Shown here: positions 18,484-53,352 of the stretch, piece by piece
Layout: every line of letters starts with the position of its first letter
Numbering within the stretch: position 1 is the stretch's first letter
NCBI GenBank assembly: GCA_963752345.1
Contig: CAVVYA010000002.1
Span: forward strand, 62,046-126,045
DNA from: an uncultured Alphaproteobacteria bacterium
GTDB lineage: Bacteria; Pseudomonadota; Alphaproteobacteria; SMXQ01
Length of the DNA stretch: 64,000 nt
Direction: 5' to 3'
Program-made: the position numbers and the translations under genes
The notes under the pieces: generated by a model
What the model was told of the DNA's origin: nothing
Databases searched by the model: none
What the model saw: only the letters and a program-made list of their open reading frames with translations

Positions 18484-18687
18484 ATGCCCATCCCGACGCA
18501 GACCGTGCAGGTCCAGTTGCGCGACTATCAGCTCTCGTTCCTCGAGGAGATGATGGCGAAATACAAGATCCCGGACCAGGGCAAGGCGCTCCGCGTGCTG
18601 CTCGACTACGCGGTGCAGGACGCCGACCTCGACCTGGTGTTCGACAAGAAAAACATGCGCTGCATCGCCTGCGGCGGCGCGGTCTAG
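18484..18687 (+). CDS. Small hypothetical protein, possible ribbon-helix-helix (CopG/antitoxin-like) fold
   Basis: AGGAG RBS, high GC3. The pattern is a beta-strand (TVQVQLRDY) followed by two helices (LSFLEEMMAKYKI, DQGKALRVLLDYA). Confidence 0.5.
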   Translation: MPIPTQTVQVQLRDYQLSFLEEMMAKYKIPDQGKALRVLLDYAVQDADLDLVFDKKNMRCIACGGAV

Positions 18688-18739
18688 GTCGTCACTCGCA
18701 CATGACGGACTGATGCGGGCATCCTCCCCCTCACCCCGA

Positions 18740-18761
18740 CCCTCTCCCGCAAGGGAGAGGG
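18740..18761. repeat. C-rich/G-rich hairpin repeat (CCCTCTCCC-GCAA-GGGAGAGGG), member of a recurring family
   Basis: Perfect 9-bp inverted repeat. It is preceded by tcaccccgaccc, as in the copies at 18993, 23902 and 24021. Confidence 0.6.
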
Positions 18762-18858
18762 TGGCAATTGGACGTGCGGGGCGCAGATCTTGGAAAGCGC
18801 GTCAAAATCGCCGAACATCCGTGGCTCGAACGAGCGACCCCAAGCGCACTATTTTCAC

Positions 18859-18952
18859 CCGTCATGGCCCGATTTGGTCGGGCCATCCACGTTCTTCTTC
18901 TCTCATCCAACAGGAAAGTCGTGGATGGCCCGACCAAATCGGGCCATGACGG
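18859..18952. repeat. Compound REP-like palindromic element: perfect 33-bp inverted repeats separated by 28 bp
   Basis: ccgtcatggcccgatttggtcgggccatccacg ... cgtggatggcccgaccaaatcgggccatgacgg. Each arm also contains its own internal hairpin. Confidence 0.75.
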
Positions 18953-18992
18953 TGAGAGGGGCCAGCGTTCAGCCTTTCACAACCTGAGAACC

Positions 18993-19015
18993 CCCTCCCC
19001 CTCGATGGGGGAGGG
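18993..19015. repeat. C-rich/G-rich hairpin repeat (CCCTCCCCC-TCGA-GGGGGAGGG)
   Basis: Perfect 9-bp inverted repeat of the same family as 18740, 23902 and 24021. Confidence 0.6.
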
Positions 19016-19026
19016 CTGGGGTGGGG

Positions 19027-20107
19027 GTGCTCAGCGGTTCGTCGCAGCATCGCTGCGCTCTTGCTCGCTCTTCATCCGCACAGCGCTTTCGCCGCCGATT
19101 TGCAGCCGCCGTTCGACATGGCCGCGCGGCGCGAGTTGCGCGGCGGTCCGCTCGGCGTCTTCAGTTGCGGCGCGCCGCCCAAGCCGGTGCGCGACCTGCG
19201 GTTCGACGGTTATTACGCGGACCGCGGTTCCGGCTCCAGCGTGGTCGATCAGCAGGCGGAGAAGGCCTATCGCGAGGCGACCCAGGCCATCGCCCAATAC
19301 GAGGCCGCGCTGACGAAAATGTCCGACCGCTACGTGGCGAGCAAGCCGGCGGACGCGCAGCCCGCCGCCTGCGTGCTCGACTGGCTCGCCGAATGGGCGG
19401 CCGCCGGCGCGATGCTGGGCGAGGCGAGCCAGCAGGGCGGCTTCGTGCGCAAATGGGGCTTGGCGCCGGTCTCGGCTTCCTATCTCAAGATCCGCGACGA
19501 ACCCGGCCTCGATGGGGCGAAGAAGCGGGCCGTCGAGCAATGGATCGGGCGCTGGGCGCGCGTCGTGCGCGACGACTACAACCCGACGAAATTGGAAAGC
19601 CGGCGCAACAATCACGTCTATTGGGCGGCCTGGTCGGTCGGGCTCGCCGCCGTCGTGCTCGATGACAGATCGCTGTTCGACTGGTCGATGGAAAAGGCGC
19701 GTATCGGGTTGAAACAGGTCACGCCCGAAGGCACGCTGCCGCTCGAAATGGCGCGCAAGGCGCGTGCCTACCATTACCATGCGTTTTCCGCCGCTCCCTT
19801 GGTGCTGACCGCCGAACTCGCGGCGCGCAACGGCGTCGATCTCTATGCCGACAATGGCGGCGCGCTGCGGCGGCTGGTGACGCGGACGATCGCCGGTTTC
19901 ACCGACGATTCGTATTTCGCCCAGGCGGCCAACGTGAAGCAGGACCGCAGCGGGTCGAGCAAGGGTCCGCACGTCGCGTGGCTCGAAGCGTATTATGCGC
20001 GCACCGGCGATGGCGCGGCCGCGCCGATCATCCGCCAGTTCCGTCCCATGAGCGAGCGTCGGCTCGGCGGCGACATGACGCTGCTCTACGGCGCCGACCT
20101 CCCGTAA
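19027..20107 (+). CDS. Alginate-lyase-family protein (PL5/AlgL-like, NNHxYW motif), secreted; probable 1-bp insertion near 19033-19038 disrupts the signal-peptide region
   Basis: NNHVYWAAWSV hallmark motif. The uninterrupted frame carries a signal peptide (RRSIAALLLALHPHSAFA-AD) but has no in-frame ATG or GTG. A GTG at 19027 with a GGAGG upstream joins that frame after a 1-bp correction. Confidence 0.6.
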
Positions 20108-20195
20108 GACCATGATTGCGCGCGTCCGCCGATCCGGCCGGAACCGTTGATACCGCACATCGTTGATAGGCAGAGGCTGAACGCAGGAGGATTCC

Positions 20196-20348
20196 ATGCG
20201 CCTGTTTTTGCTCGCCCTTGCCACCGCCGCGTCGCTCGCGCTCACCGCGTGCGGCAGCGATGACAAGACCGTGGTGGTGCCGCCCGGCGGAACCGCGGTG
20301 ATCGAAGACGGCAACGCCAAGGTTTGCCCCGCCGGCCAGACCTGCTGA
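20196..20348 (+). CDS. Small lipoprotein (50 aa)
   Basis: AGGAGG RBS 5 nt before the ATG. MRLFLLALATAASLALTACGSDD has a lipobox. High GC3. Two C-terminal Cys residues. Below the ORF-track size cutoff. Confidence 0.55.
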   Translation: MRLFLLALATAASLALTACGSDDKTVVVPPGGTAVIEDGNAKVCPAGQTC

Positions 20349-20374
20349 CGCAACCCATTTATTCAGGAGACGAT

Positions 20375-20836
20375 ATGCCCCTGCCGCCCCGCACGCGCGC
20401 CTACGATGTTCCCGCCGTCCTCGATGTGCTGAACGAGATCCTCAAGATGGAACTCGCGACCGTGGTCTATTACACCCACTATTCCTTCATGGTGTATGGC
20501 CATGCGCGCATTCCGGTGATCGATTGGATGCGTGGGCAGGCGACCGAATCGCTGACCCACGCGCAAGGCGCCGGCGACATGATCCTGCGGCTCGAGGGGC
20601 GGCCCGACATGGGCATCGCGCCGCTGCCGTCGACCCATCACAACACGATCGACGAGATCCTGCAGGAAGCGGTGGTGCGCGAGAACGAGGGCGTCGAGCT
20701 CTATCGCAAGCTGCACGCGCTGATCAAGGACAAGTCGATCGTGCTGGAGGAATACGCCAGCCGCATGGTCGCCGCCGAATCGATGCATGTCAGCGAGATG
20801 CGCATGATGCTGCGCCGCTCGGCGCCGCAGAACTGA
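20375..20836 (+). CDS. Ferritin-like diiron protein (bacterioferritin family, without the heme-ligating Met)
   Basis: AGGAG RBS. Glu/His ligand pattern (ELATVVYY, ESLTHA, ENEGVELY, AESMHVSEM) aligns with Bfr ferroxidase-centre residues. Confidence 0.65.
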   Translation: MPLPPRTRAYDVPAVLDVLNEILKMELATVVYYTHYSFMVYGHARIPVIDWMRGQATESLTHAQGAGDMILRLEGRPDMGIAPLPSTHHNTIDEILQEAVVRENEGVELYRKLHALIKDKSIVLEEYASRMVAAESMHVSEMRMMLRRSAPQN

Positions 20837-20923
20837 CGGCCTTCCGTCATCGCCCGGCTCGTGCGTCAGCACGCATGCGCATGACGCCGGGCCGTCTTTC
20901 ACAGAGCAACGCACCGATCACCA

Positions 20924-21011
20924 TCGTCATGCCCCGGCTTGTCCGGGGCATCCACGACTTTGTCGGAGGCGAAAAGAACGTGGATGGCCCGACCAGGTCG
21001 GGCCATGACGA
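20924..21011. repeat. Second copy of the compound REP-like palindromic element (tcgtcatg-hairpin-catccacg ... cgtggatg-hairpin-catgacga)
   Basis: Outer 8-mers are complementary to each other. Inner hairpins are gccccggcttgtccggggc and ggcccgaccaggtcgggcc. Same family as 18859-18952. Confidence 0.7.
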
Positions 21012-21049
21012 TTAGAAACACACCGCCCGAGGGTATTCGGGTGCGTCGC

Positions 21050-23771: not shown

Positions 23772-23886
23772 GGGAAACGATCTTTCTACCTGGTGGGACG
23801 GTCGCCGCCCTAGAATTGCCCGGCGCGCCGCCCGAACTCAACACGAAAGCGAGCGGCCGATGATATGCCACGTGCTAAGTCGCGTC

Positions 23887-23924
23887 TCACCCCCACCCCG
23901 ACCCTCCCCCGTCGAGGGGGAGGG
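23887..23924. repeat. tcacccccaccccgac + CCCTCCCCC-GTCGA-GGGGGAGGG hairpin repeat
   Basis: 9-bp perfect inverted repeat with the conserved C-rich leader. Family member. Confidence 0.6.
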
Positions 23925-24006
23925 ACTAATGACCGCCGGGCGAACCTTGCCTCCGTTTGACGCGAGAGAAATGCATCGCAGCTTGCGGCGAAGGCGGTGT
24001 GCGGTT

Positions 24007-24042
24007 CACCCCCACCCCGACCCTCCCCATCGAGGGGGAGGG
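24007..24042. repeat. tcacccccaccccgac + CCCTCCCC-ATCGA-GGGGGAGGG hairpin repeat
   Basis: Near-identical to the element at 23887-23924. Confidence 0.6.
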
Positions 24043-24120
24043 AGTGACTGGGGGAGGGAGGGAGTGGCTGTGGAGGGGATCGAGTAACGGTGGAGGGGAG
24101 GGAGTGACTGCGGAGGGGGA
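24032..24120. repeat. G-rich imperfect tandem repeats (unit ~GGAGGGGAGGGAGTGACTG), potential G-quadruplex on the + strand
   Basis: At least seven GGG(G) runs. The unit recurs at 24032-24050 and 24092-24110, with degenerate copies between them. Confidence 0.5.
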
Positions 24121-24150
24121 AGGAAGTAGCGCGGAATCAAATTTACTGTT

Positions 24151-24171
24151 CCTCCCCCCTTGTGGGGGAGG
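24151..24171. repeat. Hairpin repeat CCTCCCCC-CTTGT-GGGGGAGG
   Basis: 8-bp perfect inverted repeat of the same family. Confidence 0.55.
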
Positions 24172-24265
24172 TTAGGTGGGGGGTGCTGTTAGGCCTCCTG
24201 TGGGAGAGTTGCGGCAAGACGAATCGATGCCGGCGCTGGCCGGTGCGGAAAGACGCGAAGGGACA

Positions 24266-25335
24266 ATGACGGCAAGCGATATTCTCACCACCGATCGGCT
24301 GCTCGACCATATTTCCACCGCGCCCGCCATCGCCGGGCAGCCCGTCAAGCTCTTCGTGCGCGAAAAAGTCCGCGCCGATATCCGGGAGGCGGGCGATCGG
24401 ATCGTGCTCATGGTGCATGGCGGCTTCTGGCCATCCGACCTGGCGTTCGATTTTCCCCACGAGGATTACAGTTGGATGGACGCCCTGGCGCGGCAGGGCT
24501 GGGATGTGTTTGCCATGGACATGACCGGCTACGGCCGGTCGAGCCGTCCGCTGATGGACGACCCGCGCAATCTCGACCCGGCCCAGCAGCCGTTGCTGGT
24601 GCCACACGTGCTCGCCGCGCCGGCCGCGCCGCGCAATCCGGTCCAACTCGTGACCAGCGACAGCGAATCCGACGACATCGACCGCGTCGTGGATTTCATC
24701 CGGCGTTTACGCGGCGTCGATCGAATTTGCCTGCTCGGCTGGTCGGGCGGCGGCTGCCGCGTCGGCAGCTACACGGCGCGCCATCCGGAGAAGGTGGCGA
24801 AGCTCGTCATCTATGCCTCGTCCAATTATGCGCGCGACGGCGAGAGCAAGCCGCCCCGCCGGCTTCCCGCGCCTGGCTTTCCGATGATCCTGCAAACCAA
24901 GCGCGGCATGGACGAAGAGCGCTGGGGCCCGGCGATCACCTGCGAGCGCCAAGTGGCGCCGGGCATTCAGGATCTGCTTGGCGGCTTTGCATGGCGTCCG
25001 ATCCGGTCAGCGCCGTCTGGGGCGGCTTGCGCGGACCGACGCGCAGCTATTGGGGCTGGAACGGGGCGACCGCCGGCGCCCTGAAGCCAGCCGGCGCTGG
25101 TTCTGATCGGCGCCAACGACGGCTGCTGCCGGCGAACCGCGACCTGTTCGACGACCTCGGGTCCGATCGCAAGGCGCTGGTCGAAATCGCCTGCGCCTCG
25201 CATTTTGCTCAATGGGAAATGCAGCGCAGCCTGCTGCACCGGCTGTCGTTCGATTGGTTGGAGCAAGGCACCGTCAATGGAGAGACCAGCGGCCGGTTTA
25301 ATGCCGACCCGTCGGGATTGCTCAGCCGCCGCTGA
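24266..25335 (+). CDS. Alpha/beta-hydrolase fold protein (esterase/lipase-like, GWSGGG nucleophile elbow); C-terminal third disrupted by at least 2-3 frameshifts in this sequence
   Basis: AAGGGA RBS, then MTASDILTT. VLMVHGG and LLGWSGGG motifs in the first frame (to ~24990). The catalytic His region LVEIACASHFAQWE and the C-terminus are in ORF 24472..25335. A PALVLIGANDG strand appears in a third frame around 25091-25123. Confidence 0.55.
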
Positions 25336-35107: not shown

Positions 35108-35228
35108 ATCCCACGCCGGGTCCGCCTGGTGTGAAACGAGCGGAGTCCGATGCCGGATCCATAGCCGACTGATCGATGCGTTTCACCGAGACCACTTCCT
35201 CTAACGACTTAATCCTCAGGACTGACAA

Positions 35229-36419
<1,191 letters not shown>

Positions 36420-52158: not shown

Positions 52159-53352
<1,194 letters not shown>

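Follow-up and report, generated by a model that had tools for sequence, protein, structure and literature searches.

Two compound palindromes in an alphaproteobacterial contig as probable CGTC-tagged REP dimers reshaped in place

The DNA analysed here, a window of 64,000 nucleotides from an uncultured alphaproteobacterium (contig CAVVYA010000002.1), carries two compound palindromic elements, element 1 at 18859-18952 and element 2 at 20923-21012. We found that both are very likely dimers of CGTC-tagged repetitive extragenic palindromes (REPs), joined with their tags outside (HH dimers). This family was described in 2013 (Di Nocera, De Gregorio & Rocco 2013, BMC Genomics 14:522, PMC3733652), and the author of the earlier note on this DNA did not recognise it. 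The best overall explanation of the observations is probably that these HH dimers of CGTC REPs are non-coding repeats that have been reshaped by template switching.

The architecture of the elements is simple. An inverted-repeat search gave 100% complementarity over 33 nt between 18859-18891 and 18920-18952, which lie 28 nt apart, exactly as the earlier note had reported. The same search recovered the second compound copy that the note had described, at 20923-21012, with arms of 43 nt that are 77% complementary and with its outer blocks kept. Every arm of element 1 is a single unit that reads CGTC, ATGGCCCGA, TTTGG, TCGGGCCAT, CCA, CG: an unpaired CGTC tag, a 9-bp stem that starts with A-T/T-A, a 5-nt loop and a CCA tail. 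Each arm is indeed a hairpin, as the note had it, but the hairpin is not the proposed ggcccga-ttt-ggtcgggcc; its proper division is ATGGCCCGA / TTTGG / TCGGGCCAT, with a 9-bp stem and a 5-nt loop. Both elements consist of two inverted units with the tags pointing outward. A 28-nt spacer separates the arms of element 1, and a 22-nt spacer those of element 2. The arms of element 1 are identical, making it a homodimer. Element 2 is a heterodimer, whose left unit combines GCCCCGG/CCGGGGC with the loop CTTGT and whose right unit combines GGCCCGA/TCGGGCC with the loop CCTGG. The left unit of element 2 departs from those of element 1 at stem positions 4 and 9, on both sides of the stem, and the compensatory changes that the note had seen in the inner hairpins are thus real. 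Element 2 keeps the outer CGTCATG/CATGACG and the inner CATCCACG/CGTGGATG blocks, and a stretch of 37-38 nt recurs in both elements, in either register (direct and inverted), with 89-95% identity. The units, with their scores from a covariance model (R1), and the spacers are as follows.

18860..18891, plus strand: element 1, left CGTC-REP unit; tag 18860-18863, stem 18864-18872 with 18878-18886, loop TTTGG 18873-18877, CCA 18887-18889; R1 score 52.7 bits, E 9e-14
18892..18919, no strand: element 1, spacer of 28 nt; colinear with the orthologous spacer of relative L126, ~68% identity, same orientation
18920..18951, minus strand: element 1, right CGTC-REP unit; exact reverse complement of the left unit; R1 score 56.8 bits
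20925..20956, plus strand: element 2, left CGTC-REP unit; stem ATGCCCCGG/CCGGGGCAT, loop CTTGT; R1 score 58.7 bits
20957..20978, no strand: element 2, spacer of 22 nt
20979..21010, minus strand: element 2, right CGTC-REP unit; stem ATGGCCCGA/TCGGGCCAT, loop CCTGG on its own strand; R1 score 51.7 bits
20845..20896, plus strand: probable degenerate CGTC unit (low confidence) with a ~24-nt insertion after the loop; the L126 ortholog has a perfect 9-bp stem around the same insert

These repeats stand out sharply from the rest of the window. Within the 64 kb, the 32-mer arm matches three times at three or fewer mismatches and a degenerate unit pattern four times, where 0 would be expected of either in shuffled sequence. 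With its filters off, model R1 returned exactly four units, at 51.7-58.7 bits, and the next independent match scored 13 bits. To this model the window shows two compound elements and no further, degenerate copies; the probable degenerate unit at 20845-20896 lies below its detection, and the L126 ortholog of that unit scores 17 bits. Folding, which the earlier note had proposed as a check, gave both elements single-strand structures far more stable than those of shuffled sequence: -80.7 kcal/mol for element 1 (z -13.6) and -59.3 kcal/mol for element 2 (z -7.4).

Prokaryotic REPs split into two super-families, GTAG-tagged and CGTC-tagged (PMC3733652). According to the same source, CGTC REPs have a terminal unpaired CGTC (TGTC or CCTC being tolerated), a stem of 8-9 bp whose first two positions are "almost invariably" complementary A/T, a loop of 4-5 nt and an unpaired 3-nt CCA tail. 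Their hosts are mainly alphaproteobacterial, and the list of genomes includes Parvibaculum lavamentivorans DS-1 and Xanthobacter autotrophicus Py2. HH dimers predominate, with spacers of 20-100 nt, and sites between tandem and convergent genes are favoured (PMC3733652). In the window, all four units start with CGTC, CCA follows the stem in all four, and the loops TTTGG, CTTGT and CCTGG are each 5 nt long; the 9-bp stem with its A/T opening and the HH dimer with a spacer between 20 and 100 nt complete the description. Further, the CGTC-3 units of R. palustris translate to VIAGLDPAIH...DARVKPAHD (PMC3733652), and translation of the window units in those same frames yields VMARFGRAIH...VDGPTKSGHD. 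Because every CGTC feature that could be examined is present, and because of these translations, we class the elements as HH dimers of CGTC REPs that appear closest to family CGTC-3; the family call is less certain than the superfamily call, resting as it does on similarity to the translated R. palustris units.

With the CGTC-3 HH dimers of the 2013 catalogue (PMC3733652) the window elements share tag, stem, loop, tail, spacer range, intergenic placement and an alphaproteobacterial host. They differ in their low density (two dimers in 64 kb) and in that element 1 is an atypical perfect homodimer; otherwise nothing essential differs. The dRS3 repeats of Neisseria and RPE-4/RPE-6 of Rickettsia, which correspond to CGTC-1/CGTC-4 in PMC3733652, have the superfamily layout of tag, stem, loop and tail in common with them, but their stems are shorter or AT-rich, they are often clustered or intragenic, and their hosts are others. 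Literature searches with sequence strings of the units returned only unrelated primer matches, and the literature after 2013 added nothing on the mechanism of CGTC REPs.

The earlier note had suggested searching other genomes for further copies, and such copies are abundant. A scan of species-representative genomes with the pattern GTCATGSCCCG-N5-9-CGGGSCATCCAC gave at least 120 stretches in alphaproteobacteria. Among the matches listed, to which the unit and dimer counts of this and the next two paragraphs also refer, most come from Parvibaculum metagenome-assembled genomes (MAGs), P. sedimenti, Tepidicaulis, several Xanthobacter species, Rhodospirillales, Dongia, Ferrovibrio, Devosia and Rhodobiaceae. 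In the 171 strict units, the base ahead of GTCATG is C in 159, the loop is 5 nt long in 151 and 4 nt in 19, and the two stem positions left free by the pattern are complementary in 170 and 168 units, respectively, through several types of pair. The consensus of the 3' flank is CCAC-GTCTT, and the tail runs on into the consensus CCACGTCTT.

A looser anchor also showed conserved pairing. Anchoring on GTCAT and ATCCAC only, with the seven inner pairs free, retrieved 229 units from the sampled loci against 0.5 expected by chance, with 80 distinct cores. Cores anchored in this way at tag and tail are 94% Watson-Crick in register, as opposed to 54% after a shift of the partner by one position and 37% after a shift by two. 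The earlier note's statement that structure is conserved rather than sequence holds for the family at large: when 96 distinct units are aligned with MAFFT, 97% of the stem cells are paired (slid controls, at most 50%), and all seven free stem pairs are changed on both sides, in 133 cells, with none of 500 shuffles reaching the observed values. Mismatches within the stems are asymmetric. On the tagged strand, G:T occurs 15 times and A:C 3 times (binomial p = 0.004). Since G:T mismatches outnumber A:C on this strand, the asymmetry points to a hairpin that matters on one strand in particular, be it as RNA or as single-stranded DNA.

The pairing of units into dimers follows the published rule as well. 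A loose scan found 110 HH (tag-outward) pairs, against 24 with the tags inward and 38 in tandem; units also occur singly. The HH spacers are mostly 20-35 nt long, and in Xanthobacter a second peak lies at 43-50 nt. Heterodimers predominate in CGTC-2 and CGTC-3 (PMC3733652), and dimers with differing stem-closing pairs, our proxy for heterodimers, are likewise in excess (36 observed, 26 expected, p = 0.008). The earlier note was correct in seeing a dispersed REP-like family, but it had taken perfect arms to be a property of that family. In 130 loci together with the window, perfect arms occur in only one of 64 comparable dimers, namely element 1, and mean arm identity is 0.83.

Several side observations concern the units and their surroundings. 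Some CGTC units hold an insertion of 24-29 nt in or after the loop, which itself reads CGTC...CATGAC (window 20845-20896, L126 2506-2553, L122 7225-7276), and expanded or structured loops are also seen in L018, L039/L068, L083, L090 and L120. Just outside the tags of 74 HH dimers from L001-L127, the 6 neighbouring positions are strongly depleted of G on the left and of C on the right, and A followed by C or T is favoured right before CGTC; an insertion preference or selection on the context could explain this. One locus of a Parvibaculum MAG (L065; OZ223205.1, 120001-128000) has four HH dimers in 8 kb, as two pairs each ~545 nt apart, a CGTC density far above that of the window lineage. Between the close dimers of this locus lie ordinary small genes, one GNAT-like and one for a secreted protein, and no transposase. 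A BLAST search of plasmids with element 2 gave a single weak match, in Terrarubrum, so that either the subfamily is essentially chromosomal or the short query was too insensitive.

How might such units spread? The earlier note had offered a MITE-like mobile repeat among its options, and classical miniature inverted-repeat transposable elements (MITEs), which are deletion derivatives of insertion sequences with terminal inverted repeats and target-site duplications, do resemble the family in their small size (~90 nt), inverted-repeat ends, many copies and intergenic location. The test of target-site duplication goes against them. In 74 tag-anchored dimers, direct repeats beside the tags do not exceed in length those of shuffled flank pairs, a result that largely refutes this option, and extension of the palindrome past the tags is at chance level. 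No insertion sequence with matching ends was seen in the loci, and the occurrence of single units speaks against this option too. We regard a MITE origin as extremely unlikely. On the insertion-site question, then, the intergenic location of both copies stands, and target duplications do not appear.

A second rival holds that the elements are strict REPINs, REP doublets that are copied by a single-copy REP-associated tyrosine transposase (RAYT, a Y1 HUH transposase) encoded elsewhere in the genome. Passages in the REPIN literature (PMC3116915, PMC3337134) describe the same doublet architecture, with a hairpin and a conserved unpaired tetranucleotide, and the presence of element 1 in some lineages and its absence from another would suit copying of this kind. 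As portrayed in passages of Bertels & Rainey 2011 (PMC3116915), the REPIN-RAYT systems of Pseudomonas and Enterobacteria consist of two inverted REP hairpins that form a larger hairpin, and they are intergenic, numerous and variable in presence; the window family is alike in these respects. Those systems, however, carry the tag GTAG, which the RAYT recognises and cleaves, and their RAYT gene is flanked by REPs, whereas the window tag is CGTC and no RAYT was found in the sampled loci. No tyrosine transposase flanked by CGTC units was found in any CGTC-positive species (PMC3733652), and alphaproteobacteria have few or no Y1 transposase homologues (Quentin et al. 2018, PMC6006769). A tblastn search with E. 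coli RayT against the window and 853 kb of CGTC-bearing loci had a best E of 0.15, a weak negative. Strict REPINs are thus very unlikely here. We would instead picture CGTC units as short non-coding repeats that become established and turn over wherever intergenic DNA is permissive, and that are probably non-autonomous or relic.

The earlier note had pointed out that the two copies bracket three genes, and it had raised the possibility of a recombination site. The genes around the elements are these.

18484..18687, plus strand: 67-aa gene upstream of element 1, stop at 18687
19061-20107, plus strand: alginate lyase, between the two elements
20196-20348, plus strand: 50-aa lipoprotein, between the two elements
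20377-20836, plus strand: ferritin-like protein, between the two elements

The alginate lyase and ferritin-like genes gave matches to Pfam PF05426 and PF00210. Both elements are intergenic. Element 1 begins 172 nt past the stop of the 67-aa gene and ends at least 70 nt ahead of the alginate-lyase start; element 2 lies 88 nt past the stop of the ferritin-like gene (20836) and 39 nt beyond the stop (21050) of a convergent gene for an abgB-like amidohydrolase. If the elements were recombination or attachment sites that delimit a mobile islet of alginate lyase, lipoprotein and ferritin-like genes, one could readily understand why the only two dimers in 64 kb flank just these genes and why they have 37-38 nt in common in both registers. 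The coincidence is not so striking, in that two dimers would fall within three genes among ~55 intergenic regions with a chance of roughly 10% (a rough estimate), and no integrase or transposase was found near the elements in the window.

The orthologous sites in relatives bear on this as well. The contigs of relatives were reached through homologues of the abgB-like protein, and a metagenome scan with the alginate lyase as query supplied one relative, L125. The closest, L126, has ~88-93% nucleotide identity to the window, the same gene order and both elements. A more distant group, L127-L130 together with L122, has ~78-83% identity and the same genes (alginate lyase, lipoprotein, ferritin). 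In L127-L130, the stop of the 67-aa gene is just 6 nt from the alginate-lyase start, and element 1 is absent along with the other repeats of the ~340-nt spacer. Element 2 is at the same position in all three lineages (the window, L126 and the L127 group). In the metagenomic L125, the alginate lyase (64% amino-acid identity) is directly convergent on abgB and purT, and the lipoprotein gene, the ferritin gene and the REPs are missing. Two further abgB homologues, P0006 and P0016, have non-syntenic contexts and are uninformative. Because L127-L130 keep the three genes in the same place without element 1, and because the alginate lyase of L125 adjoins abgB without REPs, the islet of three genes is not delivered or bounded by the repeats; the lyase gene is syntenic and not repeat-delivered. 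A role as islet boundaries is accordingly most improbable. What survives of the note's recombination-site option is a narrow sense of it, in which the elements' own arms apparently template or recombine with each other. In L126, the spacer between ferritin and abgB (2150-2585) measures 435 nt, compared with 213 nt in the window, and contains, beside the inverted dimer, a further intact unit and two or more degenerate CGTC units. This content points to rapid local turnover of units.

The comparison with L126 also reveals how the elements change where they stand. For element 1, the flanks, the left arm (two of 33 positions differ) and the spacer (~68% identity, same orientation) are colinear between the two genomes. 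The right arm has eight differences in 33. In L126 this arm is of the other unit type, which makes the orthologous element a heterodimer, like element 2 and the dimers of other genomes; in the window it is the exact complement of the left arm, down to a loop base that is specific to the window. Because the L126 copy is a heterodimer, the simplest reading is that element 1 is a heterodimer that was probably homogenised recently. Its perfect arms are a recent local peculiarity and not a property of the family. Element 2 has changed differently. In L126, its unit types and its unit-specific spacer ends (CCACGACTTTGT, CCACGTTCTTTT) are swapped with respect to the window, and the outgroup L127 has the window's orientation. 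Since the outgroup agrees with the window, the comparison places an inversion in place of element 2 in the L126 lineage.

A known mutational process could produce both kinds of change. Passages in PMC8604942 and PMC8794818 describe how template switching between imperfect inverted repeats homogenises arms and inverts spacers, and how it can create and maintain hairpins without selection. The clustered, simultaneous changes that these passages associate with quasipalindrome correction and short-range template switching match those of element 1 (window versus L126) and of element 2 (L126 versus window and L127). As treated there, template switching is a mutational process and not a family of elements, and it accounts for reshaping, not for spread to new sites. 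We consider it rather likely that the perfect 33-bp arms of element 1 arose by replication template switching. In the mechanism that we propose, evolution in place would be dominated by single-stranded hairpins: stems stay paired, and arms would be copied from each other by replication template switching, giving the perfect arms of element 1 and the inverted element 2 of L126. Between the window and L127, the left units of element 2 differ by three double changes, and these may be mutational and not selected.

A different emphasis would make a host function at the RNA level the main reason that these elements exist, as hairpins in 3' untranslated regions that would shield upstream mRNA from exonucleases or dampen read-through where genes converge or follow in tandem. 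The genes on the two sides of element 2 are convergent and those around element 1 are in tandem, the settings preferred in the literature (PMC3733652). With the tags outward, a transcript that arrives from either side would first meet a hairpin in the tagged sense and then, by the family consensus, CCACGUCUU. The excess of G:T over A:C on the tagged strand is what an RNA hairpin would leave, but the asymmetry fits single-stranded DNA equally well. Element 2 has been retained at its orthologous site across ~20% nucleotide divergence with its stems still paired; element 1, on the other hand, is dispensable in the L127 lineage. Copy number varies greatly among genomes, which the 2013 authors read as arguing against a general function (PMC3733652). 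Nor do the units look like terminators. A scan for canonical Rho-independent terminators, that is, a GC-rich hairpin followed directly by a run of T, flagged no REP unit, and the T-rich stretch starts 5 nt beyond the unit stem. The sole match of that scan is a small separate hairpin at 21026-21041 on the minus strand, CCCGAATACCCTCGGG and then a T-rich tail, placed directly after the abgB stop and before element 2, so that abgB has a terminator-like hairpin of its own. On balance, an RNA-level function as the main reason for the elements is possible but unlikely. A secondary role, as 3'-end RNA hairpins that protect or attenuate the flanking mRNAs, seems slightly easier to defend and may be tentatively entertained, because the tagged-sense hairpin and CCACGUCUU are read first and because of the G:T excess on that strand.

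Our preferred account, HH dimers of CGTC REPs that are non-coding and reshaped by template switching, has several points against it. The window has only four units in 64 kb, and scans with R1 gave a likewise low density in the relatives. The sampled loci are those of the matches listed and were seeded by the motif itself, so that the counts taken from them are not unbiased, and related sequences among them are not independent observations. The homogenisation of element 1 could instead reflect ectopic gene conversion, or a new copy may have been inserted in place of the old one; the direction assumed for the change depends on the heterodimer being the common form and on a single close relative. 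Compensatory changes may stem from template switching and not from selection, and are no proof of function. Finally, the units are not canonical intrinsic terminators.

The wider window has other features of interest. It belongs to a contig of 1.22 Mb and further encodes rpoB, rpoC, rpsL, rpsG, fusA and tuf, and the closest named relatives of its EF-Tu are "Alphaproteobacteria bacterium" (92%) and "Rhodospirillales bacterium" (89%). There appear to be two tuf (EF-Tu) genes, at 35226-36416 and 52159-53352, the first of them set among tRNA-Tyr, tRNA-Gly and tRNA-Trp; a second EF-Tu (P0130, 96% identity, from the same source contig) and identical covariance-model noise matches at both sites fit this reading. 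A search of Rfam gave no family at the gathering threshold. The best matches were to miRNA-precursor models (41.8 bits where 86 is required, and 36.7 where 60 is) and are generic long-hairpin noise. A scar of a tRNA fragment or attachment site upstream of element 1 (18790-18850) was also considered; ARAGORN and a blastn comparison with the tRNAs of the window were both empty, and the candidate was dropped.

A second, unrelated family of palindromic repeats, CACCCCCACCCCGACCCTCCCCC-loop-GGGGGAGGG, occurs in the window at 18724-18765 (plus strand), 18990-19033 (minus strand), 23888-23925, 24007-24045 and 24150-24185. Two inverted copies of it flank element 1 within the ~340-nt spacer that L127-L130 lack, and similar copies are present at loci from Asaia, Xanthobacter and Rhodospirillales (L101, L023, L039). 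In the repeat-laden intergenic region upstream of purT (23772-24267), the palindromes are followed by a short tandem array resembling GGGAGGGAGTGRCTG, at 24040-24120.

Taken alone, these elements matter little, for they add one genome to a repeat family that was catalogued in 2013. For annotators there is a practical use: short open reading frames over these repeats, such as those that give VMARFGRAIH and VDGPTKSGHD, are spurious. A caution also follows, since "compensatory" changes in the stems of such palindromes may arise without selection on function. The modest value of the work lies in the comparison of orthologous sites, where a whole repeat-laden spacer is gained or lost, one arm is converted by the other and an element is inverted in place. 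These changes bear on how CGTC REPs are maintained without a RAYT. As a speculation that we hold to be doubtful, CGTC REP dimers may persist, and perhaps even multiply, without a dedicated transposase, as self-correcting quasi-palindromes reshaped by template switching. If so, element 1 of the window and element 2 of L126 would be events caught recently, and the question left by the 2013 study, why CGTC REPs have no associated enzyme, would have its answer.

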